Positions 22,006 through 64,000 of a stretch of 64,000 nucleotides of DNA are shown piece by piece (positions within the stretch are counted from its first letter, which is position 1; each line of letters begins with the position of its first letter). The notes under the pieces were generated by a model. It did not search any database and was not told the DNA's origin. It was given only the letters and a program-made list of their open reading frames with translations. Where the stretch lies: the IMG/VR virus record IMGVR_UViG_3300005337_000002; one strand, written 5' to 3'. This DNA is from a virus. Made by a program: the position numbers and the translations under genes.

Positions 22006-22305
22006 TCAGTCCCTCGCTTGCTCATCCGCAAGGAAATCAGGCACCACATAGCGCCCCACAAAATACGTCAGGGTGCCAAGGTGCAGGCTCACGCCGAGCA
22101 CAAACCACGGCAGCGGCGGATGGAGGACGCTTAGCACGAGATCGACCATCGTCGCGCTCAGCATCGCCACGCAGGCCACGGGCGCGGCCCAGGACGCGGG
22201 GGCGGGGCGCACCCAGAGCCGTCCCTGCTGGGTATGGCGGTACGTGCGCAGGATGCGGGTCCGTTGCGCCGCATGACGACTGACGCGCATGGGATTAGGG
22301 CGCAT
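22006..22305 (-). CDS. small membrane protein
   Basis: Two hydrophobic segments; GGAGG RBS. Confidence 0.45.
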   Translation of the reverse strand: MRPNPMRVSRHAAQRTRILRTYRHTQQGRLWVRPAPASWAAPVACVAMLSATMVDLVLSVLHPPLPWFVLGVSLHLGTLTYFVGRYVVPDFLADEQARD

Positions 22306-22786: not shown

Positions 22787-23100
22787 TCTCCATGCTCCTC
22801 CGGCCAGGGAGAGCCACAACAGGGGCGATAGCCCTGCGGCCAGCGATCCTGCCGGCGCGTATACCAGGGCCACCAGCGTCCTGCATCCGTCAGCACGTCG
22901 GCATACCAGGCCCGCACGGTCGCAGCTTCCTGGGCCGAGTACGTGCCATCCTCCAGCAGCGGTACGAGGGCGCTATACGACGTCCGAAGCATACGTCGAA
23001 CATGGGCTTGCAAGCGCAGCCAGTGCAGATAGGCGATGCTCCAGCCCAGAATGAGCAGCGCACCGAAGACCCCGCAACTCACGAGCAGTATATGTCCCAT
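22774..23100 (-). CDS. membrane protein
   Basis: N-terminal TM; GAGG RBS. Confidence 0.45.
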   Translation of the reverse strand: MGHILLVSCGVFGALLILGWSIAYLHWLRLQAHVRRMLRTSYSALVPLLEDGTYSAQEAATVRAWYADVLTDAGRWWPWYTRRQDRWPQGYRPCCGSPWPEEHGEWTC

Positions 23101-44245: not shown

Positions 44246-44856
44246 CACAGGGTCATCATATAGATACCTACGTTGATCTGCGTGCGAAGGCCTTGGGCTA
44301 TGATGATTACGCACACTATCTCCGTAGTGACCATTGGCAAACATTCTGTGCCACCGTCCGTAAAACGCTCTGCTGGTGTTGCGGACGCTCGCAGGGTCAC
44401 CTACATGTCCATCACACCACCTATGCGCGTTTTGGTTCTGAAGAGCCTGGAGACGTTATTACGGTCTGTAAGGGATGCCATTTGGCGATCCATGCTCTCT
44501 CGCGCACCGGCATCGCCCTTGATGAGGCCCACATTGTCTATCGGCGCCGACGTATCCAGCGCGGGGCACGTCACAAACGGCCTCGCTGGGTCAGTTGGTT
44601 TCAACTCCTCAACAAATCAAAACAGCAGACGATTGGCGAGTTACGTCTCTTTTTAGAAGAGCATGGTTTGCTTGAAGGGGAGGAAGCCACACCCAAAGCA
44701 TTTGCGCTCGGTTTTGTCCGCTTAGAGGATGGGGAGCAGCGATGGAACCTGAAGAAGTACCTCGGGTTTGTTTCTGCGTGGAAATCCATTGAGAAGCGAC
44801 GGGAACAAGGCCGTGGCATTTCCCGCACAGTGGCACGCCTCGCGTCTGGGCGTTAA
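44233..44856 (+). CDS. HNH endonuclease
   Basis: Y..YL.S.HW...C..CG....LHVHH.TY.RFG.E...D.I.VC..CH...H. Confidence 0.8.
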   Translation: MRHLAQGHHIDTYVDLRAKALGYDDYAHYLRSDHWQTFCATVRKTLCWCCGRSQGHLHVHHTTYARFGSEEPGDVITVCKGCHLAIHALSRTGIALDEAHIVYRRRRIQRGARHKRPRWVSWFQLLNKSKQQTIGELRLFLEEHGLLEGEEATPKAFALGFVRLEDGEQRWNLKKYLGFVSAWKSIEKRREQGRGISRTVARLASGR

Positions 44857-44884
44857 GAACATCTCTCACAGAAAGGACATGCGC

Positions 44885-46147
44885 ATGGAGCGCACCCTGC
44901 CGAAGAAGCTCACGGAGCTGGGCCGAATCCGCATAGGAGATCGTGAACCAAACGCCCGGGGCGGGGGCACGCATCCCCATAAGCTCTCGACCTTTCGTCT
45001 GACCTCGCAAAACGGCTCCCTGCTGGGCTTTGTGGCGTCCCTCTATGGTGGCACGGTGAAACCCTGGGAGGGCGAGGGGGCGCCGGTGGATGAGCACGGC
45101 CGCGCCACGCATTTCGAGGTGTACACGGAAGCCAATAGTCTGGACGTGCTCATTCCCACGATGAGTGCGGTGGCCCTATCCTATGAGGTCTGGAGTGCGT
45201 CCGGGTGCCAGCGGCGATGCACGGGCACGGTCATTCAGGATTGCGCGACGAACCTGGATCTGATTGGCAAAGCCTGTATCTGCCCGGCGGACGATCTGGA
45301 GCGGGCGGATCAGGCCCAGCGCGGGGCAGCCTGCCTGCGGATTCTGCGCTTGAACGTGCTGCTGCCGGACGTGCCGGGCCTGGGGACATGGCGGCTGGAG
45401 ACGAAGGGGTTTTATGCCGCTGCGGAGCTGCTCGGGACGCTGGACCTGCTCACACAGGCCGGGGGCGAGCATGCCATTATCGAGAGTGTCTTGCGGCTGG
45501 AGCAGCGCACGCTCAAGCGGGCGGCACGGGGCGATCAGAAAGCGCAAACGATGAAATTCGTGGTGCCGGTGCTCTGGCCGAAATGGACGCCGCGCCAACT
45601 GCTTGCGGGCACGGCCAATATCCTGCTCATGGCCCCGCCGACGGCTGAGGAGCCCCCGCGCCTCGCGTCGCCGATCGGCGATCTCTACGGCGACCAGGCT
45701 GCGCCCGCGGCGGATCCTGGGCAGCGGCATGAACCAGCGCTCCTCGATGCGCTTGCGGCCCATCCGGGGGAGACGCTGGAGACGTGGTATGGCTGGGCGG
45801 AGAAGCGCCTGCACAAAGCGCGTACGGCCTTTACGGACGACGACTACGGCATGCTGCTGCAAACGATCCGCGATACGGTCCGCAAAGCCAGGGCGACGGG
45901 CGAGACGTCTGATCCAGACTGGCGCATGAGTGTCACCCGCTTGGCTGCAGAGACGCGGGCGTTGCTCACGGGGAAGAATCCGTCCCAAGCCATGGAGCGG
46001 AAGGTGCGGGCCGCCTGTGCCACGGCCACGGGGGTGGCAGAAGATCCCGACGCAACGGTCGCTGTGGGCGAGGCGTGTCTGGAGACGCTACGCACCGTGG
46101 CCGATGAGGTGCGGGCGCATTTGGCCCACGGTGGCGCAGTGGTCTAG
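44885..46147 (+). CDS. phage recombination-directionality-factor-like (Gp3-like) protein
   Basis: ELGRIRIG...P.KL.TFRLTS...YGG....W; RL.V.LP..PGLG.WRLET.G..AA.EL. Confidence 0.7.
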   Translation: MERTLPKKLTELGRIRIGDREPNARGGGTHPHKLSTFRLTSQNGSLLGFVASLYGGTVKPWEGEGAPVDEHGRATHFEVYTEANSLDVLIPTMSAVALSYEVWSASGCQRRCTGTVIQDCATNLDLIGKACICPADDLERADQAQRGAACLRILRLNVLLPDVPGLGTWRLETKGFYAAAELLGTLDLLTQAGGEHAIIESVLRLEQRTLKRAARGDQKAQTMKFVVPVLWPKWTPRQLLAGTANILLMAPPTAEEPPRLASPIGDLYGDQAAPAADPGQRHEPALLDALAAHPGETLETWYGWAEKRLHKARTAFTDDDYGMLLQTIRDTVRKARATGETSDPDWRMSVTRLAAETRALLTGKNPSQAMERKVRAACATATGVAEDPDATVAVGEACLETLRTVADEVRAHLAHGGAVV

Positions 46148-46159
46148 CCAGGAGGTATT

Positions 46160-46720
46160 GTGATGCTCACGCCCGAAGAACATACGGCCCTCTTGCGGCG
46201 CTTTGAAGTAGATCGCTTGCTCAAGCTCATGACCCTCGAAGCCAAGCGCTCCCATGACGGCCACTATACGATTTTCGCCTTTACGACGGGCTATAAGGTC
46301 GCCTTTGGTACGCCGAGCCTCTACCCCGTGCAGGCCAGCGCTGATTACCAACTCCGGGCTATGCCGAGCTTTCCGACCCTCAAAGAGGCGATGATTGCGG
46401 CCTTGGTCACGGGGAAAGACTTTGAAGCCTATTTCACGGGGGATGGTGAGGCGGCGTTTGCTGCGGAGATGTCCCAGCAGGCAGCCTGCGGCGGGCCCCC
46501 CTGTTCTGCGTGGCGTGATGGGACGATCATGTTTTTTTGTGAACTCTGTGGCGGGAGTGTGGATGTCGACGCGCTCCCGGAGGGGTGGGATGGGATGACG
46601 TCTCCCTCTGTCTGCGCGACGTGCCTGCCCGTGCTTGCCTTGCCGCTCACAGATGCGCAGCGGCGCCAGGTCGTCGGCGTTTTATGGAATGCGATCGCGC
46701 GTGAGCAGGCAGGAGCGTAG
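46160..46720 (+). CDS. hypothetical protein
   Basis: DGHYTIFAFTTGYKVAFGTP motif; GGAGG RBS. Confidence 0.6.
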   Translation: MMLTPEEHTALLRRFEVDRLLKLMTLEAKRSHDGHYTIFAFTTGYKVAFGTPSLYPVQASADYQLRAMPSFPTLKEAMIAALVTGKDFEAYFTGDGEAAFAAEMSQQAACGGPPCSAWRDGTIMFFCELCGGSVDVDALPEGWDGMTSPSVCATCLPVLALPLTDAQRRQVVGVLWNAIAREQAGA

Positions 46721-46724
46721 GCCC

Positions 46725-47021
46725 ATGCCTCTCCCGAACGATCCGCGTGAGACAGCCCGTCAGTTGCGCACGGCGCGGCAGGATGTGCGCGCCCTGACGC
46801 AGGCCGTCAGCCTCGCCCTCGCCCGGCTGGACCATCTCATCGCCCTGCCGCCCGCGTCCGCGCGCGGTCCGCAGCTGGCGCAGGTGGTCAATGCGCTCGA
46901 TCTTGCGAACGATGCCGCCCTGCACTTCGGGCTGGGGCAGAGTTTTCCGACCATTGCGCGGGAGAAGGCGCGGGTGGAGCGCCTCGTGTCGGGTGCAGGG
47001 GTCGTGCGGGAGTCTGCATGA
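46725..47021 (+). CDS. hypothetical protein
   Basis: AGGAG RBS; coupled. Confidence 0.5.
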   Translation: MPLPNDPRETARQLRTARQDVRALTQAVSLALARLDHLIALPPASARGPQLAQVVNALDLANDAALHFGLGQSFPTIAREKARVERLVSGAGVVRESA

Positions 47022-47218
47022 GTGTGTGGGTGCTCGTGAGCGTTGGCTGTCTCGGAGTCCTTGTGGCGACGACGATGTGTCTCCTGCTCGGGATCTGGAC
47101 CACCCTGGGGGAGCTTGTGGCGGCGGTGGAGGACCATACACGGATGATTGAAGAACGGGAATGGATGACGCATGCGCAGAGTCCTGCTCCTCCTGCTCCT
47201 CCTGCTCCTCCTGAGTAG
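47018..47218 (+). CDS. small membrane protein
   Basis: N-terminal TM. Confidence 0.4.
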   Translation: MSVWVLVSVGCLGVLVATTMCLLLGIWTTLGELVAAVEDHTRMIEEREWMTHAQSPAPPAPPAPPE

Positions 47219-48224
47219 TCAGCTGGTGTCTGCCGCCTCCCTCACGATTGGCCCTGGGGACGCGCTCAGTGCCGCCGTGGCGCAGTTGCATCCGGGCGAG
47301 ACGCTGACCCTGCTGGGCGGGACGTATACCCAGCCGCTGCGCTCGGGCGACGTGGTCTTCCCCAGCGGCACGTCCTGGCAGGCGCCGATTACCATTCAGG
47401 GGGCGCCCGGTGCCACCGTGGTCCTGACGCAGCCCGTCAATATCCAGGCCAATAGCGACGGGTCCTCGGTCCGCTATCTCATCCTCGCCAACCTGCACAT
47501 GCCGACCTTTCGTGTGGGCGATCAGACGAGCTTCTTGCGGGTGCAGGACAGCGACATGACGGGGGATGCCAACCACGGCATCACGATTACCTCCACGACC
47601 GATCATATCGAGATTCTCCGCACCCTCGTGCATGATGCGCAGGTGGGGAGCAATCCCGCCTATAGCGTCACGACGGCCACCTATGGCTGCTACTGTAACG
47701 GGCAGCATATGCTGATCGAGGGCAACACGTTTCGCCAGAACAGCGGGTATGCGCTCCACCTCTATTTGAGTGGCAGCACGGTCAATAATGCCATCGTGCG
47801 GCGCAACACGTTTGTGGGGAACGCCGCGGATGATGGCACCCGCAACCTCACGCTGGGGGTGGTCATTCTGGCCGGGAGCAACAATCTGTTCTGCGGCAAT
47901 ACGCTGACGGACAACCCCACGCTGCATGGCGGGCCGGCGGTCTCGGCGGAGTATGGCAGCGGCAACGTGATCGTCGGCAATACCATCAGTGGGACGAATG
48001 GCCCGGCGATTGAACTGAACGACTCGGCGGTGGGGACGGTGGTGGCGGGCAATCAGCTCACCAATAATCAGGGCGGGATCGTGGGGCCGGGGATGACGAC
48101 GATGGTGACGACGACGACGGTGGACTGTGCGGCGCCGCTCGCGGCGCCCTCGCCCGTGCCGGTGGCGCAGAAGCCGCCTGCGCCCACGCACTTGCGGGTG
48201 CTAGCGATTCTCCCCTCACACTAG
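47172..48224 (+). CDS. secreted right-handed beta-helix protein
   Basis: Signal peptide, PGETLTLLGGTY, N-rich repeats; paralog of 55844-57727. Confidence 0.8.
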   Translation: MRRVLLLLLLLLLLSSQLVSAASLTIGPGDALSAAVAQLHPGETLTLLGGTYTQPLRSGDVVFPSGTSWQAPITIQGAPGATVVLTQPVNIQANSDGSSVRYLILANLHMPTFRVGDQTSFLRVQDSDMTGDANHGITITSTTDHIEILRTLVHDAQVGSNPAYSVTTATYGCYCNGQHMLIEGNTFRQNSGYALHLYLSGSTVNNAIVRRNTFVGNAADDGTRNLTLGVVILAGSNNLFCGNTLTDNPTLHGGPAVSAEYGSGNVIVGNTISGTNGPAIELNDSAVGTVVAGNQLTNNQGGIVGPGMTTMVTTTTVDCAAPLAAPSPVPVAQKPPAPTHLRVLAILPSH

Positions 48225-48355
48225 AAGGAAGATAGGTATGGGTGACATCATCGAAAGCGCGCGGCATGCCATTGCTCTGTTAGGGATGCTTATCATGCTC
48301 TGTTGGGTGATCATCGTCCTATGTGACCACCCTAAGTGAGTGAGGAGGTATATCG

Positions 48356-49405
48356 ATGAGTCAGCGCATGATTGATCAGATTTTTCGCGAGGGGTATGTG
48401 ATGGAAGTGCGCCCGGGGACGCTCCGGCACTACCGGGTGGGGGAGCCGCTGGCGGAGGGCGGGGTCCTCCCCTTCACGCATGCGCAACCCTTTATCGTGG
48501 ACAATGTGACGGCCTATATGTACGCTGGCACCAGTCAAAATGTCTGGTTCAGCACCGACTTTCCGAACTGTGCGCCGCCCGCCCCGGTGTTCTGGATGGA
48601 GACGCGCCAGCCGCCCGCCATCCGCACCGAGACCGCGGTCCTGCCCTGGCCCGGGCAGTATGCCTGGGGCGCCCTGTTCCAAAGCGTCGACGTGACGCAG
48701 CGGCCGGACGTGCTTGCCGTGGCCGCCCGCGCCTTTCACGGCGCCGCGCAGGACCGCTTTGCGGAGGCGCGCTGGGCGTATCAGTGCTTTCCGTTTGTCC
48801 TGCTCGACCGGGCCGCCCCCGTCTTCGGCCCGGTGATGGTTGGGATGTGTCTGGTCGATGCGCATGGCGCCCTCCTGCCGCATTGGATTCCCGCGGCCTG
48901 TGGTCAATCCGTCTGTACCTGCCCGCGGACGCACCGCACGCATAGCGCGGTGGAGGCATGGTGGACCGTCCATCTCGACGCGTGGCCCAGCGCGCACCTG
49001 CGCGAGCGCCGCGAGGTCTGCCGTCCGCTCCTCTTCCCGTTCTGGCTCGCCCTCTCGTTCCTGCACTGTAAGAATGTGACCGCGACCGCGACGGATCCCT
49101 GTCATCCTCGCGGCAAGCGCCGTCCGCAGGATCCCTGTCGTCGGGTGCACTATAAGGTCCTCGACATTCACCCCATGCAGCGGCTCCTCCAGCGGGAGCG
49201 CACCGCGCACCAGGGGGACTTGCGGCAGGCGCTCCATATCATGCGCGGCCATTTTAAGAATTATCAGGACGGCAGTGGGCTCTTTGGCAAGCATCACGGC
49301 CTGTACTGGTGGGACCAACGGCTGCGCGGGTCCTCGGACCACGGGATTGTGGTCAAAGACTATGCGATCCACGCGCCTGCGTCGCAGGGCCAGGCCGATG
49401 GATGA
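48356..49405 (+). CDS. conserved phage hypothetical protein
   Basis: HIMRGHFK.Y...GLFGK..GLYWW....G....G.V.KDY. Confidence 0.65.
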   Translation: MSQRMIDQIFREGYVMEVRPGTLRHYRVGEPLAEGGVLPFTHAQPFIVDNVTAYMYAGTSQNVWFSTDFPNCAPPAPVFWMETRQPPAIRTETAVLPWPGQYAWGALFQSVDVTQRPDVLAVAARAFHGAAQDRFAEARWAYQCFPFVLLDRAAPVFGPVMVGMCLVDAHGALLPHWIPAACGQSVCTCPRTHRTHSAVEAWWTVHLDAWPSAHLRERREVCRPLLFPFWLALSFLHCKNVTATATDPCHPRGKRRPQDPCRRVHYKVLDIHPMQRLLQRERTAHQGDLRQALHIMRGHFKNYQDGSGLFGKHHGLYWWDQRLRGSSDHGIVVKDYAIHAPASQGQADG

Positions 49406-49722
49406 AAGGCGCGCTATGCCGCAGGCCGACGTGTGTTGGCACTGTCACGCCCCCGCGACCCGCTGGTGTGATTATACGATTGCCTGGACGATTGTGGGCT
49501 ATACGAAGCACCGCACGCCCTATACGAGTCGCACTGTCGACCATCCTACGTGTGACCGCCCCCTCTGCCCGGTCCGCGCCCGTGCCGCTCCTCGATCCCG
49601 AGGGGATTGCGCGTCTGCGTGCCCGCCTTGCTGCGGAACGCCCCCCCCATCGCTTACGTCTCCTGCCTGGGGGACGGGGCGGGTAGTGTCATTCTCTTTC
49701 CTCTTATTCTGGAGAGTATCGC

Positions 49723-50895
49723 ATGTTTCCGACCCTGCTCAATCGACTCCGCAACCGGCATCGCTACCATACCCATCCGGAGGCTATCATTCTGGCCTGC
49801 TTCTTTAATCCGCAACACTCGCCCTATCGGCTGCTGGCCTTTCACCACTGGTATCGCAGCATCAAACATTTGCCGCATCAGATTCTGGAATGCACGATTG
49901 GGGAAGATACAACCCGCCAACTGCCTCCTAGCCCCTCCATTGCGCATGTCCATGTCCAGCAACTCCTGTGGCATAAAGAGACCTTACTCAACAAACTCAT
50001 CGAGACATTACCTGCGCAGTATCGCTATGTCTTTTGGGTGGATACCGATGTGCTGTTCACGAATCCGCAGTGGCTGACGCAGAGTGTGGCGCAGTTGCAA
50101 GCCGAGGCGACGATTGTACAGCCCTTTGAGTTTGCGATTCATCTTCGCCGCCATCAGCTGCAGCCAGATTTTCCCGTCGAGCATTGGCCCGCAGGTACCG
50201 CCACCCCTCTGCGCCATCCTCGGGTCTGGCGCAGCTTTGCGGCCACCTATGCCCAGCATGCTGCCCTGGCTGCGGACGCCAATTATGACCGCCATGGCCA
50301 TGTCGGCTTTGCCTGGGGCATACGGCGTGCACTTCTTGATGCGCACCTGCTCTATGACAAAGCGCTGATTGGTGGCGCCGATCATATTATAGCGCATGCG
50401 GCTGCCGGGCATATTCCCCATCCCTGTATTGATGCGGCATTCCCGCACCAACTGCCTGACATCCTCCAATGGTCGTCCGCATTTTATGCGTCGGTCCGCG
50501 GCCACATCGCCTACGCTCCTGGTGATCTCTATCATCTGTGGCACGGGGCATTGTCCAAGCGGCAATACTTCTCCCGGATCCACGCCTTTGATCATGCCCA
50601 CCGCGATGTCTTCCGTGACACAGAGGGGTTCTGGGTCGATCCAGCGGATACCCCCTACGTCGAGGACTATTTTGAGGAACGTGAGGCCGAGGGCGTGGCG
50701 GATTATCAAGGCTATGATGCCTCATTTGAGGAGGATATGGGCTCTCCTCTCGATGCCCTCTGCCCGGCCTTGCCCCTCGATACCACCGACAGTGTGATTG
50801 ACCAGACGCCCGGGGTCTGGGATGGCCCGCCCGACCCCAGGCCTTCTCATGACGATGCGCCCTATGACGTAACGATGGGCAGCACCTTTTCCTGA
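49723..50895 (+). CDS. GT-A-fold glycosyltransferase-like protein
   Basis: WHKE.LLN, WVDTDVLF (DxD), GFAW, GGAD, HLWHG; acidic tail. Confidence 0.65.
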   Translation: MFPTLLNRLRNRHRYHTHPEAIILACFFNPQHSPYRLLAFHHWYRSIKHLPHQILECTIGEDTTRQLPPSPSIAHVHVQQLLWHKETLLNKLIETLPAQYRYVFWVDTDVLFTNPQWLTQSVAQLQAEATIVQPFEFAIHLRRHQLQPDFPVEHWPAGTATPLRHPRVWRSFAATYAQHAALAADANYDRHGHVGFAWGIRRALLDAHLLYDKALIGGADHIIAHAAAGHIPHPCIDAAFPHQLPDILQWSSAFYASVRGHIAYAPGDLYHLWHGALSKRQYFSRIHAFDHAHRDVFRDTEGFWVDPADTPYVEDYFEEREAEGVADYQGYDASFEEDMGSPLDALCPALPLDTTDSVIDQTPGVWDGPPDPRPSHDDAPYDVTMGSTFS

Positions 50896-50925: not shown

Positions 50926-52125
50926 CTAGTCTGTGTGCAACGCCCGCTGCATGCGCTCAGCTATCCTCTCGCTGTTGGCGGGATGGAGGAGCCGCTGCAT
51001 CACCAACTGGGCCTCGATGGCACGTATGACGTGCGCGTGGTCCTGGGGCATAGGCGGCGGCGCTGTGTCACTGGACACGGTCGCGACAAGGCCTGCAGGC
51101 GGATCACTCACGGGGGTCAGCACAAACCCATGCCGCACCCCCTGGACCAGCCCCTCCCCCGCGATGAGCCCCTGGGCATTGCGACTGAGCACCCGCTGGA
51201 GTTGCCAGCCGTCCGCATTGGTCACGCGGGCCTGGAGTGCGATGGGCTGGTCCTGCGCATCCCAGAGCGTGGCGACACGGACCGTGAGTCCCGGCTCCTC
51301 CCCCTCGGTCACACTGGCCCCGAGCACGTTGCCGTCGTCATCGAGCCCGTCGCCCTCGCTCGTCTCCAAGCCCTCCAGCGGCGTCAGGACGTGCTTGCCA
51401 TCGCTGCGATAGATCGCGGCCTGGCTGACGGGGGCATGGTCCTGCACGACAATCTCCCCAGCCCGGTTATTGATGCCCCGCGCCTCACTCCCCGCGACGA
51501 GGTCAAAGATCGCGCCCGCGAAACTCCAGAAGGCGGCATGGAGCACCCCGGCCTCATCCGTCGCCGCACCCGCACTATAGCCCGCGTCATTGATGGCGGT
51601 GAGAAACGCGGATTGCTGGTCGGCCAGCAGGCGTAAGGTGCGGGGCTGTCCGTCTTCCCAGAGCGTCGGTTCCAGGTGACTGCGGTCTGGCACTTCGGCA
51701 TAGCCCGCCACGACGAGGCTCAGGTTACAACTGGTCGCCGCGCTAAAGAGATCGGGATCGCCGAGAGTGCCCTCATCGATCAAGCCGCCCGGGCCGGTGA
51801 ACGTACAGGCATGAGTGAAGAGCGAGAACGGCCCAGTGCCGCACAGACCCACCGTGGCGCCGTTACAGATGGCGGCGGCGATGGAGAACGTGCCACCGGG
51901 GAGGAAGCCCAGGGGCACGGGGACGGGGAAGAGGAGCGCGGCGATCTGGTTGGGGCCAAGGAGGGTGCCCGCCACGAGGGGCTGCAGCGGATCGACCCCG
52001 GCGACGAGCACCTCGCCCAGGTCGGTGAGGGTATACGCATCGGCGAGCGGGGCCGCTGGGGTGCGGGACGGGAAGAGCAGGACGAGGAGCAGGAGGGTCA
52101 CAACAGTGCTGATGGCACGAGGCAT
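50926..52125 (-). CDS. secreted HAF-repeat protein
   Basis: Signal peptide, YTLTDLG, S.A..IN..G..G repeats, HGFVLTP. Confidence 0.75.
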   Translation of the reverse strand: MPRAISTVVTLLLLVLLFPSRTPAAPLADAYTLTDLGEVLVAGVDPLQPLVAGTLLGPNQIAALLFPVPVPLGFLPGGTFSIAAAICNGATVGLCGTGPFSLFTHACTFTGPGGLIDEGTLGDPDLFSAATSCNLSLVVAGYAEVPDRSHLEPTLWEDGQPRTLRLLADQQSAFLTAINDAGYSAGAATDEAGVLHAAFWSFAGAIFDLVAGSEARGINNRAGEIVVQDHAPVSQAAIYRSDGKHVLTPLEGLETSEGDGLDDDGNVLGASVTEGEEPGLTVRVATLWDAQDQPIALQARVTNADGWQLQRVLSRNAQGLIAGEGLVQGVRHGFVLTPVSDPPAGLVATVSSDTAPPPMPQDHAHVIRAIEAQLVMQRLLHPANSERIAERMQRALHTD

Positions 52126-54455: not shown

Positions 54456-54614
54456 TTAGAGACGCCCGGTGAGCAAGAGGACCACGAGGATTATCAGTAC
54501 GATGCCCACAATCCCTGGCATGCCCCATCCCGTGCCGTGCCAACTCCCCCAGGGGGCCGTTGGGACACCTGCAAAGAGGACGATGACTAATATAACTATT
54601 AGTAGTAACCACAT
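54456..54614 (-). CDS. DUF3309-like small membrane protein
   Basis: LL..IL...L..G.P.......WG.PG..G.VL.IL.VL.L.GR. Confidence 0.7.
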   Translation of the reverse strand: MWLLLIVILVIVLFAGVPTAPWGSWHGTGWGMPGIVGIVLIILVVLLLTGRL

Positions 54615-54852: not shown

Positions 54853-54996
54853 TTACCTCCCGAGCGGGATCGCCCGCAGCAGTTCGATGAGGACAAGGCA
54901 GAGCACGCAGAGCCAGATGGCCATGCCCCGGAGGATGTGGATAATGAGAAACGCGAGGGCCAGGACCGCGAGGACGAGAAACACGGTTAGGGGCAT
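54853..54996 (-). CDS. small two-TM protein
   Basis: Hydrophobic, 47 aa; GGAGG RBS. Confidence 0.5.
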   Translation of the reverse strand: MPLTVFLVLAVLALAFLIIHILRGMAIWLCVLCLVLIELLRAIPLGR

Positions 54997-55610
54997 GGGG
55001 GTTCCTCCGTAGCGTGGACGTCGTGGACTGCGCCCAGCACCACAATGTCCGGACAGGTCGCAAAATCCTTGGGGGCGATAAACCCACGCGGATCGTAGGG
55101 GATATCGAGGCCAACCTGGGCATAGAGCCGCTGCACAAACTCCGAACAAATGAGCCGCGTATTCGCATGGGGCGCGTGCGGCGGCATCCCGAGGACCTGC
55201 CCCATGATGCGCAAGGCAATGCCGGCAATCTCGCGCCCATCATACCGCGTGCCGAGCAGCGTCACGGCCTCCTGACTGAGGCGCTGCAGCAGGACGGCGT
55301 CGGTCGGAAAGCGCGTATGCCGGGCCACACAGACGATGCCCGGATAGGGCTGGCCGGTGTCGGCGTAATTGGTCACATACTGCTCCATAGCCACCGCCCG
55401 CACGCCAATGGATTCGACCGATTCGAGCACGAGCACCCGCTGCAGCCCCTCCAGACGCCAGAGCAGGCCCACATGACTCCAGCGGGACTGCGTGGCGTGT
55501 TGAATGAGTTGGGACATCGGACTTGTGCCCTGACAGAGGAGGAGGTCGCCCGAGCGCAGGTCTTCCTGCCATCGCGTATACGGGGACGTCGGAAGTGATG
55601 ATGGCTCCAT
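54987..55610 (-). CDS. permuted papain-like NlpC/P60 amidase (YiiX/YebB-like)
   Basis: GDLLL..G....S.LI..AT.S.WSHVG ... G..YD ... ICSEFV ... P.DF. Confidence 0.85.
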   Translation of the reverse strand: MEPSSLPTSPYTRWQEDLRSGDLLLCQGTSPMSQLIQHATQSRWSHVGLLWRLEGLQRVLVLESVESIGVRAVAMEQYVTNYADTGQPYPGIVCVARHTRFPTDAVLLQRLSQEAVTLLGTRYDGREIAGIALRIMGQVLGMPPHAPHANTRLICSEFVQRLYAQVGLDIPYDPRGFIAPKDFATCPDIVVLGAVHDVHATEEPPCP

Positions 55611-55629: not shown

Positions 55630-55830
55630 TCAGCGCAGTGCGCGACATTGGTCAATCGTGGCGCCGCCGGTCGCAATGAGGGCCGAGACCCCGATGAAGG
55701 GGCCATAGGAGCCACTCACCCAGAGGCAGGCGGTATCCCCGCGTTTGTTGAGCGTATCGGCCAGATGGTCGACGCTGGCGCAGCCGCCGCACAGCAGTCC
55801 CAGGAGGAGCGCGCTCCAGACCCAGCGCAT
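55630..55830 (-). CDS. small lipoprotein
   Basis: Lipobox-like CGGC after a hydrophobic core. Confidence 0.6.
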   Translation of the reverse strand: MRWVWSALLLGLLCGGCASVDHLADTLNKRGDTACLWVSGSYGPFIGVSALIATGGATIDQCRALR

Positions 55831-55843: not shown

Positions 55844-57727
55844 TCACCGCATGCTCACGCGGTGGCGGCGCACCGTGGCACTCTGGCGGTAGTCCGTCAG
55901 AATCTCGGCGGCACTCCAGACGCGATTATCCAGACGAAAGTCATCGACGCTGCCGGGGTCATAGTACGTGCCGGATTCATTCACCCAGCGGCCGACGTCA
56001 AAGACCGTCAGATCGACGGTCGGGGCGGTCGAGGACGGCGCCGACGCCACAAGCGCGCCGTTCGCATAGATCGCCCGCACGCTACTGGTTGCCCCGCTGG
56101 AGACGAGCGCGAACCGCACCCATCGCCCGAGATAGGGTGTACAGTCCACGCTCACGCGCCCGACGGTATGCCAGTCGCCGTAGTCCCAGTAGCAGACATT
56201 GTCGCTGTACGGGAGATGCGCGCCAAACCGGTCCTGCACCGCGGCGCTATGCGCGCCAAAGGCCCCGGTGACGCCCCCGGCGGTCACTTTGCGCCACAGG
56301 AGCACGGTGACGGGCTGCCCCGCTGTCCACACCATCGTGGCAGTGGTCACGTACTGCGCCACGCCGTTCATCGTCACGGCGCCGGTCCCGACGCGCCCCG
56401 GTCCCCAGAGCGGACCCCCCGCGAGCGTGCCGGTATAGCCATTGCCCGTCGCATCGGCCACGGTCGTCCCCGTGCCCTCATCGAATTTCCACCGCAGCGC
56501 TTGTGGGCCGGTCGTCACGACGCCGCTGCCATACTCTTCCGCCCCGAGGTCATAGGCCGCGCCCTGGGGCCGTGCGATCCCGCGCCGATCGGTCGGCACG
56601 GCGGCGAGCGTGACGCCCGCATCAATGGCCGGGCTGCCCGCCTGGAGGCGAAAGTCGCCGGCAGCCGCATTGACAAAGAGGGGATCGCCCGTGAGCAGAT
56701 TATGATCCCGGATCGTGCCGGTGGCCCCGTCATCTTGAATGGTGTCCGCGTTCCCCGTCAGGATATTGTTCTGAATTTTGGTATTCGTATTGCCGACGTT
56801 GATTTCAATCGCCGCGCTCTGCGGGTTCTGGGTAATGGTATTGTTATAGACGCGATTATTATCCACCCCAAAGCCGCCGGTGCCCGGACTGATACTCACG
56901 ACGGCTCCATTGCCAATGCAGAGATTATTCGAAAAGATATTGTTCGCGAGGAGATTATTCCCGCCATTCATAATGATGACATTGAGCCCTTGCCCCCGCG
57001 TGCCGTCATTAAAGCAATTCTCGTGAAACAGGTTATTGGTGACGACGGCATTTTCCACCCCACCCCCGCTGAGATAGAGATGGATCGCATAGCCATAGTT
57101 GTCATAAAACTCGTTGCCATCCATCGTCATATTCGTCCCGTTACAGTAGCAGCCATACTGGCCCGGAATGCCGTTTGGATCGCCGACATAATTGAGATCG
57201 AGCCGCGCCCCGTGGATCTTATTGCCCACGAGGCGGACATGATCGGTATAGCGGGCGATGCCCACCGTCGCGAAATCGCCCCCCGTAAAGTTGCTGTTGC
57301 TGACGGTAATATGGTGGCTATTGATCGAGATTTCCAGATGGGGCGAGGTCAAGTTATCCAGCGTGAGATATTGCGGGATGCTGGCATCAAAGTTGTCCTG
57401 GATATTGATCTGGTTGGGGATCACCACCGTTTCGCCGGGATACCCCGCGATGGTGATGCGCGTACTCTCATTCGTGCCGCTGGGGAGGCGAAAGCCCACG
57501 GGACTAAAGAGTTCATTATAGGTCCCACCCCGAATGAGCAGCGTATCGCCCGGTGTCAGGCACGCGACCCCAGCGGCAATCGTGCGCCGGGGCGTGGTCA
57601 GTTGGGTGGCCGCCGCACAGCTATTGCCGGCGGCGACGGCCCCATCAACATAATAGATCGTGGCGTGGGCAGGCCCCCACCAGAGACCGCAGAGGAGGAC
57701 GACCAGGAGCATGCGAGGGTGTCTCAT
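55844..57727 (-). CDS. secreted beta-helix + LamG domain protein
   Basis: Signal peptide (PAHA|TIYYVD), PGDTLLIRGGTY, GDFRLQAGSPAIDAG, W.FDEG.G...D..GNG..G, DDFR. Confidence 0.85.
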   Translation of the reverse strand: MRHPRMLLVVLLCGLWWGPAHATIYYVDGAVAAGNSCAAATQLTTPRRTIAAGVACLTPGDTLLIRGGTYNELFSPVGFRLPSGTNESTRITIAGYPGETVVIPNQINIQDNFDASIPQYLTLDNLTSPHLEISINSHHITVSNSNFTGGDFATVGIARYTDHVRLVGNKIHGARLDLNYVGDPNGIPGQYGCYCNGTNMTMDGNEFYDNYGYAIHLYLSGGGVENAVVTNNLFHENCFNDGTRGQGLNVIIMNGGNNLLANNIFSNNLCIGNGAVVSISPGTGGFGVDNNRVYNNTITQNPQSAAIEINVGNTNTKIQNNILTGNADTIQDDGATGTIRDHNLLTGDPLFVNAAAGDFRLQAGSPAIDAGVTLAAVPTDRRGIARPQGAAYDLGAEEYGSGVVTTGPQALRWKFDEGTGTTVADATGNGYTGTLAGGPLWGPGRVGTGAVTMNGVAQYVTTATMVWTAGQPVTVLLWRKVTAGGVTGAFGAHSAAVQDRFGAHLPYSDNVCYWDYGDWHTVGRVSVDCTPYLGRWVRFALVSSGATSSVRAIYANGALVASAPSSTAPTVDLTVFDVGRWVNESGTYYDPGSVDDFRLDNRVWSAAEILTDYRQSATVRRHRVSMR

Positions 57728-59148
57728 TGGAGGACTCCCTTGATCTTCACCTGGACAAACTTGGCCGTGCCCCCGGCTGCCGTAATGTTGACGGCCAGAT
57801 CGCACGGCGTACTACTACACGTGGCCCCCGTCCCGCTAAAAGGGTGCACCAGTGGACTGCCGTTGACCGTACACGCCGCCCAGATACCCGTGCCGCACGT
57901 ACAGGCCCCCGTGAGAATCGAGGTACCCGTGATGTCCCCGGTCAGGATGGGGCGCACGGTGGGCGTGCCCGCGTCGGCCATACAGGCGACCGTCGTGATT
58001 TTCCAGTCTTTTTCAAAGTCGTTCGGACAGGCGCGGGGCGAATCCTCATCATCGGCCAGCGGCGGGGCATCGACACTCACCGAGCCGACGCTAATGACGC
58101 AGGGCTTGATCTTGTACTTGTCGGGGATCCCGATACTCCAGGCCTTCCAGCGCGTCGCGGTCGCATCATAGATGATCGCCAGCGTCTCGCCCGGGAAGAG
58201 GGTCAGGTCCCCCCCGAAGAGGAAGCGATTCACGGCCGAGGAGCTGGCACTCTGGTCTTTGAGGGTGAGGGCATTGGTCGTGCCCACGTTCTGGAGCGCA
58301 ATGATATCACCGCCTGTCCCCGCGGTCAGGCCGGTGAGCAGTCGATCCGCTGCGCCTCCATTGATGCGACAGACGCCAGTGGTACACAAGGCGTAATCAT
58401 TGGCATCGCCTGCCAGGGTCGCGGTCGTCGCGGTGCCGGTCACTGCGAGTTGCGGGGGCAGGTCCGCTTTGACCGGGGCGCGAAACGTCGGGGCTGCAGC
58501 ACTGCCCGAGGCCGGTCCCGCATAATGGGTATTGGCCGTTTGCGTGGCTTTGACCCAGGCAATGGTGCCCGCGGTCGTGATCGGCGAGCCGGTGACGGTA
58601 TACTCGGTCGGCGGCGTGATCGTCACACTCGTGACGGTGCCGGTGCCTGCGCCACTGCCGGGGACATAGGCAATAATCTTGGTATCAATCAGGGCCAGAC
58701 TGCCTGCCGTCGTCGCATTGTCGTCCATTTGCCCGATGACAATGCCGTTACTGGGGGCAGCGGCTTGCGCGTGGCAGTCCCCCGCCACCGTGACCGACGC
58801 GACGACATACTGGCCGCGCACGTTACTCGCGGTGGCGTCCATGCGGCAACTGGTCACGCCGCTCAGATTGAGCATGGCATAGCCGGTCGTGGTCCCGTTG
58901 CGCGTGACCACATAGAGCGGGATATTCGTATCGCCCGTGCCGGCGATCACCGCCCCCGTCGAGGTGATCTTCGCGAGGGACCAGAGGGTCGTTCCGGTGC
59001 TGGGGTCATTGAGCACGGCCTTGACGGTATTGGTGCCGCGCGACGCTTCCTGCGCATCGACGCCCGGGAGCAGCGTGGCGAGGGCGAGCATGAGCAGCAG
59101 GAGGCGCAGGGTCGGGGAGCGGAGCAGATGGGCGAGTCGTGCCAACAT
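57724..59148 (-). CDS. tail-fibre/adhesin-like multidomain protein with signal peptide
   Basis: GTVTSV.....EYTVTGSPITTAGT and AGPASG.AA.PTFRA.V.ADLP fibre repeats; signal peptide (GVDA|QE). Confidence 0.7.
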   Translation of the reverse strand: MLARLAHLLRSPTLRLLLLMLALATLLPGVDAQEASRGTNTVKAVLNDPSTGTTLWSLAKITSTGAVIAGTGDTNIPLYVVTRNGTTTGYAMLNLSGVTSCRMDATASNVRGQYVVASVTVAGDCHAQAAAPSNGIVIGQMDDNATTAGSLALIDTKIIAYVPGSGAGTGTVTSVTITPPTEYTVTGSPITTAGTIAWVKATQTANTHYAGPASGSAAAPTFRAPVKADLPPQLAVTGTATTATLAGDANDYALCTTGVCRINGGAADRLLTGLTAGTGGDIIALQNVGTTNALTLKDQSASSSAVNRFLFGGDLTLFPGETLAIIYDATATRWKAWSIGIPDKYKIKPCVISVGSVSVDAPPLADDEDSPRACPNDFEKDWKITTVACMADAGTPTVRPILTGDITGTSILTGACTCGTGIWAACTVNGSPLVHPFSGTGATCSSTPCDLAVNITAAGGTAKFVQVKIKGVLQ

Positions 59149-59186
59149 ACGTATCCTTTCGGCGGCGTCTAGACCGCGGTGACGTG

Positions 59187-60074
59187 TCAGTGCATAAACT
59201 GGAAAAACCCAGCGGTATTGCTGCCGCCCACATTGATGAGCGGGCCGCGATTGAGCAGCCCGGTATCGCCCTGGCGTCCGAGGCTATAGAGGGCGGCCAC
59301 GTCGAGCGCGCTCAGCGCCCGCAGATAGAGCCGCGCGTCATCGAGCGCCCCGTCCCAGGTATTCGAACTGCCATCAAAGGACCCGAGGGCCGCGAGATTG
59401 GCGCCCGCGAGGAACGTATTCGCGCTGTCCATATCCGACGCGGTCCCTTCCTGCTTGCCATCGAGATAGAGCGTGACGACCGTGCCATTCAGGACGAGCG
59501 CGCCATGATGCCAGCCGGTATCGAGCGCCGTTGCGCCGGTGAGCAGCGTGTTACTGTTTGATACATTGCGGTACCGCCCCTCCAGCATGCCGCCCGTGCC
59601 GCTCGTCTGCAGCGCCCAGCCGAGGGAGCCGGTCGAGCGCTGGAAGGAGAAGAGGCGCAGCTGGGCCGCCGCGAGGGCCGCCGTCGTCGGCTTGAGCCAG
59701 ATGGTCGCCGTGAGGGTCGTCTGCGTGCTCGCGTAGAAGTCCGACGTGAGCCCGACATCGACGTAGGTCGTCACGCCATCGAACCGGAGTTCGCCAAAGC
59801 CCCCGGTGCGCACGGTCGCCCCCCAGGTCGCGCCATTCGTCAACGTGCCGTGGTGGGTGCTCATGAGGTCATACCACTGGCGTCCGCCGTCGAGGCCCGG
59901 AATGGCCCGCCACATGCTCACGAGGCCCCAGGCGAGGGGATGCTCGCGCTGCACGGGGGCATGCGTACTGATGAGGCCCAGGCCCCCGACATGCGCAAAG
60001 GGCGAGAGTTGGGCCTGGCAGGGGAGGACGCTCGCGCAGAGGAGAGCGATGAGGAGCAACAGACGCAGGATCAT
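59187..60074 (-). CDS. LamG/ConA-like domain protein with signal peptide
   Basis: HPLA.GLV..W, FDG...YV, WHH, LYLDG, G.LDD.R.Y.RALS. Confidence 0.85.
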   Translation of the reverse strand: MILRLLLLIALLCASVLPCQAQLSPFAHVGGLGLISTHAPVQREHPLAWGLVSMWRAIPGLDGGRQWYDLMSTHHGTLTNGATWGATVRTGGFGELRFDGVTTYVDVGLTSDFYASTQTTLTATIWLKPTTAALAAAQLRLFSFQRSTGSLGWALQTSGTGGMLEGRYRNVSNSNTLLTGATALDTGWHHGALVLNGTVVTLYLDGKQEGTASDMDSANTFLAGANLAALGSFDGSSNTWDGALDDARLYLRALSALDVAALYSLGRQGDTGLLNRGPLINVGGSNTAGFFQFMH

Positions 60075-60583
60075 TGCGCAATGCCCTCGATAGTAACTGG
60101 CCTAATTTTAATAGTATTACCAGAGGCCGCCAACGTCTGTCCGGTGGAGTCGTTCTTTGCGACCGCCTTAAACAAGCCCCAGGGACAGAGAATGCGCCGG
60201 GTGACCCGCGTCCCTGTTTGCCCGGCGGTCACGGGGAGGACGACGTCGGGGGCCCGGCCCAGGGTGATCGAGGCGGTCGGCGTATCTTCGTAGTTCGTGC
60301 CGTCCGCCGCCATGAGGAACCAGACGACGACGGCCGTATTGGCGGTGGGATTGGCCCCGAAGGTAAAGACGCCCTCGACATCGCAGAGGACATAGCCGTC
60401 GCCCGCTTGGAGCGGCGTATTATTGAAGGCGGCACTGGCGGCGGTGAATCCGTTACTGGTTAGTGAGTTCAGTTGCGTCGTCAGGAGACTCGTCTGGCTC
60501 CCGAGCAGAAACTTGGTCACAATCGCGGCGTGGGCAAGACTTGCTATCCCAAGGATGAGCACAAGACTGAGCAGACGTCTCAT
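60071..60583 (-). CDS. phage tail-region-type protein with signal peptide
   Basis: Signal (LAHA|AI); DGTNYED motif; coupled. Confidence 0.65.
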   Translation of the reverse strand: MRRLLSLVLILGIASLAHAAIVTKFLLGSQTSLLTTQLNSLTSNGFTAASAAFNNTPLQAGDGYVLCDVEGVFTFGANPTANTAVVVWFLMAADGTNYEDTPTASITLGRAPDVVLPVTAGQTGTRVTRRILCPWGLFKAVAKNDSTGQTLAASGNTIKIRPVTIEGIAQ

Positions 60584-61122
60584 GTGGCGTCCCTCGCGGT
60601 AGAAATATCATCCAGCGTCAGCTTGCGCCCGCAGACCACCTCGGCCCGGGACCCCTGCCGCTTGACCATCGCAATGAGCGCCGTGCGGGTGGCACTGGGA
60701 TTGGCAAAGATGCCGACAATCGGGGGACTGCCGCCTGCGCCGACGAGGATGGCGCGAATATTCGCTTTACTGAGATCCACCGTCGTCGTGCCGAGAATGG
60801 TGTTCAGTTGCGCGAGTTGATGATCCGAGAGCGCCAGATACTCGGCGGGGTCGAGCACGGTGGCCTTCAGGTCGGCGACGGCGACGGGGGCAGGATCGAC
60901 CTGGTAGGTGGCACCGCTGCGCACCTGGTTCATGACGGTGAGGACATCGGCATCCTTGCCTGCGGCAAAGAGGTTTTGGAGACTGACCGACTGGCTGTCG
61001 GCGAGATTGGCCGGGTTCGTCTGCAATTCCGTTTTCAAATCCGACGGGGTGCAGACTGCCCCGGCGATGAGGGGACAGAGCATGAGGAGCAGGGCTGCTC
61101 CGAGGCGTGTTACGACAAGCAT
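60580..61122 (-). CDS. phage tail-region-type protein with signal peptide
   Basis: Signal (IAGA|V); LK.EL..NP and SRAE motifs. Confidence 0.6.
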   Translation of the reverse strand: MLVVTRLGAALLLMLCPLIAGAVCTPSDLKTELQTNPANLADSQSVSLQNLFAAGKDADVLTVMNQVRSGATYQVDPAPVAVADLKATVLDPAEYLALSDHQLAQLNTILGTTTVDLSKANIRAILVGAGGSPPIVGIFANPSATRTALIAMVKRQGSRAEVVCGRKLTLDDISTARDAT

Positions 61123-61238: not shown

Positions 61239-61898
61239 ATGACTGCCCATAATTTCATTGATTTGACTGAACAACTCTTTGATCGATTGACCGTCTTGAG
61301 CCGTGCGGCCAATGGGAGTGATGGTCGGACACGTTGGATGTGTCAATGCAGCTGCGGTGCTCTGCGCGTTGTCGATGCGAAGGCTTTGCGCCGACGTGCA
61401 ACCAAAAGCTGCGGATGTTTTAAGATTGAGGAGAATACGCAACGTAGTCGAACGCATGGCATGGCACACACTGCGGAATACTTTGTATGGAAAAACATGA
61501 AGGCACGATGCTTGAACCCGCGCAGCTCGCGTTATGCAGATTACGGTGGTCGCGGGATTACTATCTGTGCACGATGGCAAGACTCGTTCGTCAATTTTTA
61601 TGAAGATATGGGGCCTCGCCCAGGGCCGAAATACACTATCGAGAGAGTGCGAAACTCGGAAGGGTATGCGCCAGACAATTGCATCTGGGCAACATTGTCT
61701 GTGCAAGCACGTAATAAACGCACGAGCCTTTCTTTCACCTTGAATGATATTACGCAATCGCTGCTGGAGTGGGCGCAAAGCATCGGAATGAACTATCACA
61801 CGTTGTATTATCGCTTGCAGTGTGGACTGTCTCTTGAAGAGGCTATGGCTCGGCCATTGCAGATACATAAAAATAATATACATAAACATATAGAATAA
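61239..61898 (+). CDS. HNH homing-endonuclease-like protein (paralog of 4194-5093)
   Basis: DLT...F.RLTV, W.C.C.CG, SCGC, YGGRGI.IC.RW, Y.PDNC.WAT...Q.RN. Confidence 0.85.
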   Translation: MTAHNFIDLTEQLFDRLTVLSRAANGSDGRTRWMCQCSCGALRVVDAKALRRRATKSCGCFKIEENTQRSRTHGMAHTAEYFVWKNMKARCLNPRSSRYADYGGRGITICARWQDSFVNFYEDMGPRPGPKYTIERVRNSEGYAPDNCIWATLSVQARNKRTSLSFTLNDITQSLLEWAQSIGMNYHTLYYRLQCGLSLEEAMARPLQIHKNNIHKHIE

Positions 61899-61905: not shown

Positions 61906-64000
61906 CTAATTAGTAGCATACGCTTGCCATTTGGAGAGCACTGTGGAATAGACCACGCCAATTGCTGTCCAGGCGGATGTTCCGCTTGGGCATACCGTGG
62001 GCAGGCCGACGTTCGGGCTCGCAATAAAAATACTATTCCAAGCAAACGTCTGTTGGGACGTGCAGAGGAACCGCAGAAACAGGCGTTGGCCATTGACGGG
62101 CGTGCCTGAGGGGGCGGCCACCGTGAGCGTCCCACTGCCAGCGGTCATCTGCATCTCGCAGTCGTCGGACGAGTCTCCCGCACAGGTGTACGTGGTGCTG
62201 CTTGTCAAGGTCGTGACTCTGGGCGTGATCCTCTTCGCAGACAGCGTCTGCGTATCCGTATCTCCGACGACCGCCCCGCTCGGTGCCGCGACGACGTTGA
62301 GCGTGCCATCCCCGCCCGACGTCTTCACCAGGCCGTTACTTGTCAGATTCGCGAGTTTGGCAATCGTGGGGGTGGTGAGCGTCGGACTCGTGGCCTTGAC
62401 GTAGTTGCCCGTCCCAGTCACCGCAACGCCCTGAATGACCGTTGCGGACGTCCACTCTGCCGCTTGCCCGCTGGTCGGCGTGCCCGTGTTCGACACATTG
62501 CCCCCGCCTGCCGGCGTCTGCCACGTCCCATCGCCGCGCCAGAAGGTGGACGATGACGCGGACGTGCCGCTATTCAGATTCGCCACCGGCAGATTCCCCG
62601 TGACCCCGGTACTCAGGGGCAACCCGGTCGCATTGGTCAGGACCGCCGCACTCGGCGTGCCCAGCGCGGGCGTGACGAGGGTGGGACTCGTCGCCTTGAC
62701 GTAGTTGCCGGTGCCTGTCACGGCCACCCCTTGGACGGCCGTCGCGCTGACCCATTCCGTCGACTGTCCCGCGACAGGCGTGCCCGAGATCGTAATGGTC
62801 CCCCCGCCCCCGCAGGACGTGACGGTGCACAGCGCCCCATCGCTATCGGGCAGCGTGTTGAAGTGATGGGCGCTCAAATTGCCCGCCATGAGCGTGCTGG
62901 TCCAGCCATGCGGGTCCGTCAGTTCCACGAGGCCGCTGCCCTGGCCGTGCGTCATTTCCTGGATCGTGCCGACATGGTTGCCCGGATCATAGAGAAAGCG
63001 GCCGGTGTCCACGTCCCACGTCGTGCCTTCGCCGTGAAACGCCACGTCCTTGTAGGCCCCCGTGGCCAGCGCCGCCCCGCCCCCGCCGCCCCCCGCCAGC
63101 GTGGCAATCAGTTGCGAGTTGAAAATGATCTGCCAGGTCGAGGTGGTCGAGTCGTACTCAAAGAGCAGGAGATCATCTTTATTCAGCCCGGTCGTCGCGG
63201 CCGGCAAGTCCCAGCCGGCATTCTCGCTATACTGCGGTTGCCAGGTGAGCGGCTGAGGCGTGGCACTGCGCAGGCGCAAGCGATACCACTGCCCGGCCCG
63301 CGCCGTGCCCAACGGGTTGAGGATGAGCGCGCCCGTCGTCATGGCCGTCACGCGCTCCAGGTCATACAGCACGGGATTGGGCTGAATCGTGCCGCTGGTG
63401 GTGCTGGGATCGGCCAGCGTATTGACGCGCGGCGGGACAAACGTCTGCTCCAGCGTCTGCGGGCCATCCGTCCCGGCCAGATTGCCCGCGGGCAACGGCA
63501 CGGTGGTGACGGCGGCGAGCCCCCCGCTGGTCGTGGCGTAGAGGACGCCCGAGGGCAACACCCCGAGATTCACGCCGACCGGGAACTGGCTATTACTTTG
63601 CGCGAGGAGCGGCTTGGCGACGGATTGGGCGATGGCTGGCACATCGCAGATGAGGACGCCCGTGGCCGTCACGCCTTTGGCATAGGTCCCTGCGAGTTGA
63701 CAGGTATTGCCCACATAGGCCGCAAAAAGCCCCGTGCCATCCGCGGCCTGGAGCGTGCCAGCCCCGCCGAGCGGGAGGCGCTGCCAGGTGCCCGCCACGG
63801 TCGACGTCGTGATCGGCACTTGATTGGTGGCCGTGGCAGTGCTCATCGTCACATTGCCGAGCGAGCCACTGCCGCCCGTGCCCCCGCTCAGCCCCTCGAC
63901 CTGGAACGTGGTACCGTCGTCGCAGGCTTCGACCCGCTGGCCGATGCCGATGTCATTGGCGACGAGCGGGGTCGCCACGCCCGCCACGCGCTTCATCAGG
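61906..64000 (-). CDS. tail-fibre-like protein (probably 5' truncated)
   Basis: [13 protein letters not shown]...[30 protein letters not shown] fibre repeats; duplicated distal domain. Confidence 0.8.

Follow-up and report, generated by a model that had tools for sequence, protein, structure and literature searches.

A phage fibre-region gene block whose members appear to have switched together to Sec-dependent export

We describe a block of five consecutive genes, A to E (positions 55844–61122), in a stretch of 64,000 nucleotides (nt) from the IMG/VR virus record IMGVR_UViG_3300005337_000002; this whole stretch is called the window. An earlier note on the window had proposed that the five genes belong to a phage tail region and that each of them encodes a Sec-type signal peptide. 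All five open reading frames (ORFs) were confirmed on the minus strand. From its upstream end the gene string reads as follows (aa, amino acids; a slash marks a predicted cleavage site; related loci and genomes are cited below by L and G numbers).

61906–64000, minus strand: fibre-like gene, with its 5′ end beyond the end of the window; in relatives, the first gene of the exported block
61239–61898, plus strand, opposite to the block: inserted HNH-like gene between the fibre gene and E
60580–61122, minus strand: E, 180 aa, predicted to be exported; signal ...LIAGA/VCTP
60071–60583, minus strand: D, 170 aa, predicted exported jelly roll (CBM/TNF-like); signal ...SLAHA/AIVTKF
59187–60074, minus strand: C, 295 aa, predicted exported LamG lectin-like protein; signal ...LPCQA/QLSP
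57724–59148, minus strand: B, 474 aa, predicted exported fibre-like protein; signal, beta N-domain, Stf-type repeat, beta domain and Cys-rich C-domain (12 Cys)
55844–57727, minus strand: A, 627 aa, predicted exported right-handed beta-helix with a LamG-like part; signal ...GPAHA/TIYYVDG; 8 Cys
55630–55830, minus strand: probable lipoprotein of 66 aa, ...GGC/ASVD; conserved 3′ of beta-helix genes
54987–55610, minus strand: C92 permuted papain-like (NlpC/P60-superfamily) peptidase (Pfam PF05708, 2.3e-07); without a signal
54456–54614, minus strand: DUF3309 small membrane protein, 52 aa (Pfam PF11752, 8e-08)

The minus-strand string ends with a gene for a coiled-coil protein that has a membrane segment at its C-terminus. 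At E/D, D/C and B/A the stop codon overlaps the next start by four bases, and the gap between C and B is 38 nt; the block genes are therefore read as one operon. Promoter- and terminator-like matches inside the block stay at background level in a consensus scan, whose consensus may not be that of the host, and the G+C content runs from 0.56 to 0.67 over the region without a clear boundary.

The N-termini of the five proteins are MRHPRMLLVVLLCGLWWGPAHA/T (A), ...LLLLMLALATLLPGVDA/Q (B), MILRLLLLIALLCASVLPCQA/Q (C), MRRLLSLVLILGIASLAHA/A (D) and MLVVTRLGAALLLMLCPLIAGA/V (E). By inspection, each begins with a basic n-region, continues with a Leu-rich core and ends in a small-x-small site, and all five have the layout that we required of a Sec substrate of signal peptidase I (SPase I), namely an h-region of ~10–15 residues, small residues at −3 and −1 and a site within ~35 residues of a supported start. 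The D, C and B ORFs contain no start codon upstream of the chosen one.

These N-termini are conserved in kind, not in sequence, as seen in B homologues, in the orthologues from L002, L005 and L069 and in the eight block-type homologues of C (alignment A5). Once obvious start-codon miscalls had been corrected, every block orthologue in L002, L005 and L069, the fibre gene included, was found to keep a signal-like N-terminus; the orthologues that keep their signals, in four other loci, are 33–75% identical. All 14 full-length B homologues (40–93% identity) have a variable hydrophobic N-terminus that ends in a small-x-small site, with an invariant Gln directly after it (alignment A1). The run of signals is longer than five genes, since it takes in the downstream 66-aa lipoprotein and, judging by relatives, the upstream fibre gene: fibre gene orthologues in L002, L069 and L113 begin with signal peptides, while the N-terminus of the window copy lies beyond the window end. 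The proposal of five Sec-type signals thus stands, and the run extends in both directions.

A Gln at +1 (AQ or GQ) is seen very often in B, C and many orthologues; it suggests an N-terminal pyroglutamate, and it may also serve as a hint at the host group. We also considered E as an SPase II lipoprotein and rejected this assignment because its conserved Cys is at +2, not +1 (AGA/VC in the window and VWA/DC in L002), unlike the downstream 66-aa gene with its conserved G-C/A-S-V.

Most of the 106 D homologues are ~148 aa long and carry no signal. The earlier note had proposed comparing N-termini with those of phage homologues; in this comparison most signal-less D proteins start M-A-x-V-E-K, aligned to the predicted mature end of the window protein (AHA/AIVTKF). 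Cysteines follow the same division. The mature part contains exactly two Cys in 32 of the 33 signal-bearing D proteins, while the signal-less ones (n = 131) have 0, 1, 2 or more Cys without a conserved pair. The pair of one signal-bearing clade occupies window positions 69 and 160 (100% versus 0%) and that of the other 67 and 133 (93% versus 1% at position 133); the window protein has Cys67 and Cys133. Such clade-specific pairs point to real export and disulfide formation. In a tree of the mature part the signal-bearing proteins make two supported clades (99 and 95 in the Shimodaira–Hasegawa-like approximate likelihood ratio test), and the clade of the window protein is nested among signal-less proteins. 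Two separate gains of a signal are favoured by the tree and the differing Cys pairs, though they are not proven.

The same relationship recurs in E and C, which, like D, belong to phage families whose usual members lack a signal and begin exactly at the predicted cleavage site. A jackhmmer search links E to signal-less phage proteins starting MDYxxLxxE; its nearest Atlas clusters consist mostly of viral hypothetical proteins (the best three are 91–100% viral), and its signal is retained in L002, L069, L090, L113 and L117. C is assigned to Pfam Laminin_G_3 (73.5 bits against a cut-off of 27.6; 2.6e-20), and in alignment A5 an N-terminal signal is present in 8/8 block-type homologues and in 0/18 others. 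That E, D and C derive from normally cytoplasmic phage proteins and acquired their signals is supported by these comparisons.

The signal state, moreover, appears to switch for the whole block together. D relatives were found on 65 IMG/VR contigs, almost always with a LamG gene next downstream, and C for its part invariably came immediately after D. On ~60 viral contigs the signal state of D and that of its LamG neighbour always agree (in two cases an automated scan had called a signal on a LamG gene next to a signal-less D, wrongly, as inspection showed). Where D has no signal, neither does the LamG gene nor, where present, the E-like gene (inspected by hand for L070 and L072). A signal on D goes with signals on the C, E, fibre and beta-helix genes, as observed in the window, L002, L005, L069, L090/91, L093/94, L113 and L117. 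The coordinated switch is supported by this agreement, and such a switch would mean that the block proteins must meet in one compartment.

The mature parts of A, B, C, D and E have 8, 12, 0, 2 and 2 Cys, an even number in all five. With conserved signals, signal-less D proteins that start at the cleavage site, clade-specific Cys pairs and even Cys counts all pointing the same way, we regard export followed by oxidative folding of the block proteins as the only simple reading of the sequences, and we hold it with high confidence. The suggestion of export with possible disulfides, made in the earlier note, is therefore very probably right as to export, and its disulfide part is backed by the clade-specific Cys pairs of D and the even counts.

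That the hydrophobic N-termini are artefacts of start-codon choice, or uncleaved membrane anchors, is by comparison very improbable. Our heuristic signal scan was indeed too permissive (it flagged 31 of the 93 ORFs) and was not used as a statistic. Still, D, C and B offer no earlier start, the N-termini are conserved in kind and followed by small-x-small sites, signal-less homologues begin at the predicted site and the Cys pairs are confined to signal-bearing clades; each of these observations argues against an artefact.

The block closes a genuine siphovirus-type late (tail) operon, and the element that carries it has conjugation genes as well. In L002 it is preceded by DUF2460-like, NlpC/P60 gpK-like and J-like (phrog_31, 1e-50) proteins, and the start of the fibre gene overlaps the stop of the J-like gene. 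A J-like gene also lies in the upstream region of the block in L113, a locus of the IMG/VR genome G003 (66.4 kb, with direct terminal repeats and 100% estimated completeness). Matches to PHROGs identify in G003 the large terminase, portal and major head protein as well as the tape measure, the J protein and a tail fibre of 526 aa without a signal. At the stop of this tail fibre begins the signal-bearing fibre gene; E, D and C come after it, then a double beta-helix protein and one more protein with a signal. The tailed-phage setting, for which the earlier note had looked to virion genes beyond the window, is thus borne out. In L069 (720–11619) terS-terL lead directly into the block instead of a portal gene. 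Seven signal-bearing genes stand in a row there, namely those for a protein of 128 aa and a fibre of 1344 aa, then E, D, C and B, and lastly the start of A. In the prophage L072 a signal-less trio sits between membrane proteins and terminase. The block is also a mosaic; between L005 and the window B is 73% and A 58% identical and D only 33%.

The E-D-C trio is widespread in uncultured phages. No match to D was found in 301 genomes of the Rhodoferax order (G006) or 301 of the Acidobacteria phylum (G007), no tblastn match to A, B, C or D in cultured phages, no megablast match to window 44–64 kb among phages and plasmids, and no match in single-protein IMG/VR scans with B and with A. Look-ups of identical proteins gave no match for the fibre, B or D, and for C they led only to a contig of 1.1 kb. 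The block families are known only from metagenomes.

Among the block proteins, a fibre-type repeat or domain was found in B and the fibre gene only. Residues ~165–231 of B form a widespread Stf-type fibre repeat, common to many fibre-like proteins and matching, among others, a Caudovirales protein named for the lambda Stf repeat; a species-genome scan with B recovered nothing beyond this ~65-aa repeat. The AlphaFold2 model of B (predicted local distance difference test, pLDDT, 78) starts with a helical signal, after which come a beta domain of ~120 aa, the Stf-type repeat and another two beta domains. Foldseek gives it weak matches to cement proteins of phages, to the base of the phi29 head fibre, to Ena pili and to the N-terminal jelly rolls of tailspikes. 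The fibre gene product is 35–37% identical to proteins of 742 aa (L002) and 1344 aa (L069), both signal-bearing, and its conserved C-terminal part of ~100 aa recurs immediately upstream of E/D in L090–95, L113 and L117. No Pfam or PHROG family was found for either B or the fibre gene.

A matches Pfam Beta_helix (33 bits against a cut-off of 25.9) and has a LamG-like C-terminus; its homologues contain PF13229 with or without PF13385, and one to three tandem A paralogues are present in L005, L095, L113 and L117. Its beta-helix family is very large; the members are ordinary secreted proteins of bacteria, and in most of them ATYYVA comes after a signal. A may have brought its own signal along, whereas E, D and C acquired theirs. 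A is a candidate polysaccharide lyase or hydrolase. The model of D is a jelly roll (pLDDT 92) that matches CBM6, PNGase F domains, PBSX XepA and TNF-like domains at Z ~8.5, a level which can reflect the common fold only. The fibre-repeat, LamG and beta-helix content ascribed to the block in the earlier note holds for B, C and A, whereas no Pfam or PHROG family was found for D and E. That note had also named a picture that would refute its proposal, ordinary non-phage secreted homologues with no virion genes nearby; homologues of this kind were found for A only, and virion genes do lie nearby.

Downstream of the block, the 66-aa lipoprotein has homologues directly 3′ of A in L005 (53%) and L117 (36%). 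The C92 peptidase, a candidate cell-wall hydrolase, has an equally placed homologue in L005, 54% identical, whose start lies near an internal Met of the window gene, probably the true start. Homologues of the DUF3309 protein follow the block in L002 and L005, and a holin-like role for it is only a guess. The flanks described in the earlier note are thus right as regards the fibre gene; a lysis-like cassette (C92 peptidase, DUF3309 mini-membrane protein and coiled-coil membrane protein) is only plausible, with no canonical holin or endolysin family found in this region.

Two paralogues of block domains lie in other operons of the window.

47172–48224, plus strand: stand-alone, putatively secreted beta-helix paralogue of A, N-terminus MRRVLLLLLLLLLLSSQLVSA/A; without a LamG domain
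21139–21987, minus strand: membrane-anchored paralogue of the B N-domain, with one hydrophobic segment before the domain

The first (Pfam Beta_helix/NosD) is 38% identical to A over 289 aa (E-value 8e-46), and the second is 36% identical to the B N-domain over 147 aa (E-value 3e-20). The signal of 47172–48224 contains a run of twelve Leu. In the same operon as 21139–21987, the gene 22295–22873 (minus strand; P0122) encodes a protein with one membrane segment, and hhalign gives it a weak match to the B C-domain with three aligned Cys (E-value 0.0024, probability 12%). Just downstream of the lysis-like genes, 50926–52125 (minus strand, 399 aa) has a signal-like N-terminus (…LLLLVLLFPSRTPAAP) and belongs to no known family.

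Several other observations concern single genes. The HNH-like gene 61239–61898 has a 39%-identical paralogue at window positions 4194–5093 and a 42%-identical homologue that, in L092 and L095, sits at the fibre/D junction, there too on the strand opposite; it resembles a homing endonuclease targeting the fibre/E-D junction. An aromatic tail (RFFPFF, RFLPFF or GFFQFMH) closes the signal-bearing C homologues and is missing from the signal-less ones (alignment A5; the C-terminus of C is at window 59187–59215), and this tail could be a docking or sorting peptide. In L070 (8331–14326, on a 664-kb contig) a signal-less E-D-LamG trio with one small gene lies between DDE transposase genes and may move as a cassette. 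L139 6334–11745 (G003 45334–50745) encodes an 1803-aa signal-less tail protein with a HKGLLAWW-type N-terminal motif as in the C family; two signal-bearing genes follow it, in the middle of the structural region.

F-type transfer genes lie at window 552–13520 (TraC/VirB4-like ATPase, TraG_N, TraU and coupling protein), and the window also has an integrase (13872–14744) and a Gp3-like directionality factor (44768–46147). Five block-bearing viral records, among them the complete G003, gave no TraU homologue. Since the block occurs in a complete phage without a TraU match, it is not a conjugation accessory, and the option of a conjugative adhesin raised in the earlier note is weakened accordingly.

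As to function, we tentatively favour, at somewhat less than an even chance, a set of glycan-binding and glycan-cutting fibre proteins that would act off the virion, outside the cytoplasm and late in infection, in the envelope of the producing cell. The distal fibre-region module (fibre, E, D, C, B and A, then the lipoprotein) would be made with cleavable Sec signals and exported to the periplasm, where its proteins would fold with disulfide bonds, export having been accompanied by newly fixed Cys pairs. The exported set would strip away or cover the polysaccharides in the envelope of the producer, so that the envelope would no longer trap progeny or admit superinfecting phage. Binding and cutting of glycans is proposed because of the folds, that is, LamG, Beta_helix and the likeness of D to CBM6 and PNGase F. 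An off-virion role is favoured because the complete relative G003 has its own signal-less J protein and tail fibre, because block-domain paralogues reach the envelope from other operons and because A belongs to a family of mostly ordinary secreted enzymes. Two precedents count in the same direction: endolysins toggle between holin release and Sec export (PMC6116005), and XepA is an exported late protein that is not part of the virion (PMC6834076).

Several points weigh against this proposal. A Sec signal would bring the proteins no further than the periplasm, and surface polysaccharide is on the far side of the outer membrane. For A, neither catalytic residues nor substrates were recognised. 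The signal-less E-D-C trio follows portal and fibre-like genes in L084, which fits a virion role equally well. A single origin of the signal in D is not rejected by the approximately unbiased (AU) test (p 0.11, reduced set), and export and cleavage of the block proteins are themselves something that we infer from sequence.

The two main alternatives place the same proteins elsewhere. They could be exported appendages of the virion: the fibre, B and their accessories would mature with disulfides in the periplasm and dock when holin action or lysis mixes the compartments, and tail assembly would then be partly extracytoplasmic, having evolved, perhaps more than once, from a cytoplasmic module. 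Fibre addition is a late step and is possible in lysates in vitro (T4, lambda), which suits this model. So do the translational coupling of the block to J (L002) or to the tail fibre gene (G003), the position of signal-less E-D-C homologues beside fibre-like structural genes, the Stf-type repeat of B and the jelly rolls resembling phage head-fibre and tailspike N-termini; a change of compartment by the whole set is, moreover, what is expected of proteins that assemble together. Yet a literature search gave no precedent in tailed phages, no virion-docking domain was recognised in the block proteins, and the G003 tail proteins, the secreted enzyme relatives of A and the tethered or secreted paralogues, which suggest envelope work, all count the other way. 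We judge virion appendages less likely than the off-virion role, of which they are the main rival.

Clearly less likely still are lysogenic-conversion or cell-surface adhesins, a moron-like set of fibre and lectin proteins displayed on the lysogen and maybe aiding conjugation contact. The block sits at the end of the tail operon, the place where lambda carries lom and stf. Signal-bearing proteins with the same repeat are common on Acidobacteria, Bdellovibrio and Bacteroidota chromosomes, the window has its F-type transfer genes, and in the mosaic adhesive trimer (MAT) fibres of Bdellovibrio, as in B, the signal leads straight into a beta domain (~130 aa in the MAT fibres; PMC10769870). Against this stand the translational coupling to tail genes, the occurrence of the block in a complete phage for which no TraU homologue was found and the failure to see an own promoter or terminator, a clear shift in composition, or an outer-membrane anchor or secretion-system signal at the block.

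Known exported phage proteins offer only partial parallels. Sec-exported and SAR endolysins, such as Lys44 of the Oenococcus phage fOg44, exist beside signal-less, holin-released forms and accumulate outside the cytoplasm before lysis (PMC6116005). The block resembles them in that late phage proteins come in signal-less and signal-bearing forms. It differs in that the signals are on at least six fibre, lectin and beta-helix proteins rather than on one enzyme; A–E have no muralytic domain (no peptidoglycan-hydrolase family by Pfam or PHROGs), and the nearby C92 peptidase has no signal. XepA of PBSX, the defective prophage of B. subtilis, is a late lytic-cassette protein that is exported beyond the membrane and absent from particles (PMC6834076), and it has been listed among non-classically secreted proteins (PMC1266369). 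D matches its structure 6i56 (chain residues 34–141) at Z 8.5, but without a sequence relationship and at a Z in the common jelly-roll range.

The MAT fibres resemble phage fibres; in them a signal is followed by a beta-rich domain and then by variable lectin, TNF-like or beta-sandwich tips (PMC10769870). D matches the tip of Bd2133 at Z 7.2, at fold level only; searches of PDB sequences with the B profile and the fibre protein gave no match, solved MAT fragments included for B. Moreover, MATs are large chromosomal genes of a predator, whereas the block proteins are small to medium in size and sit in a phage late operon with E-D-C accessories. The stf-tfa/lom region of lambda shares with the block its place downstream of J, the Stf-type repeat and a small gene after the fibre gene. 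There, the exported moron Lom is encoded in the side tail fibre region, and it alone has a signal; Stf and Tfa are cytoplasmic and join the virion. In the block region, unlike lambda, every gene has a signal.

Tailed-phage morphogenesis is treated as cytoplasmic, and the late phage proteins documented to use Sec are lysis proteins, exclusion proteins and a few morons. Export of late phage proteins as such is thus known; what is new is a whole fibre-region block switching compartment with matched gains of Cys. The signal-less and signal-bearing forms of the block make a natural experiment in moving a protein module between compartments. If the block proteins join virions, this would be a new assembly route, and annotation pipelines would be mishandling such fibres. 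If they stay off the virion, late-exported phage factors that act on the host envelope would have to be recognised as a new class, an outcome that would matter for the way phages get out of capsulated or biofilm hosts and for depolymerase discovery.

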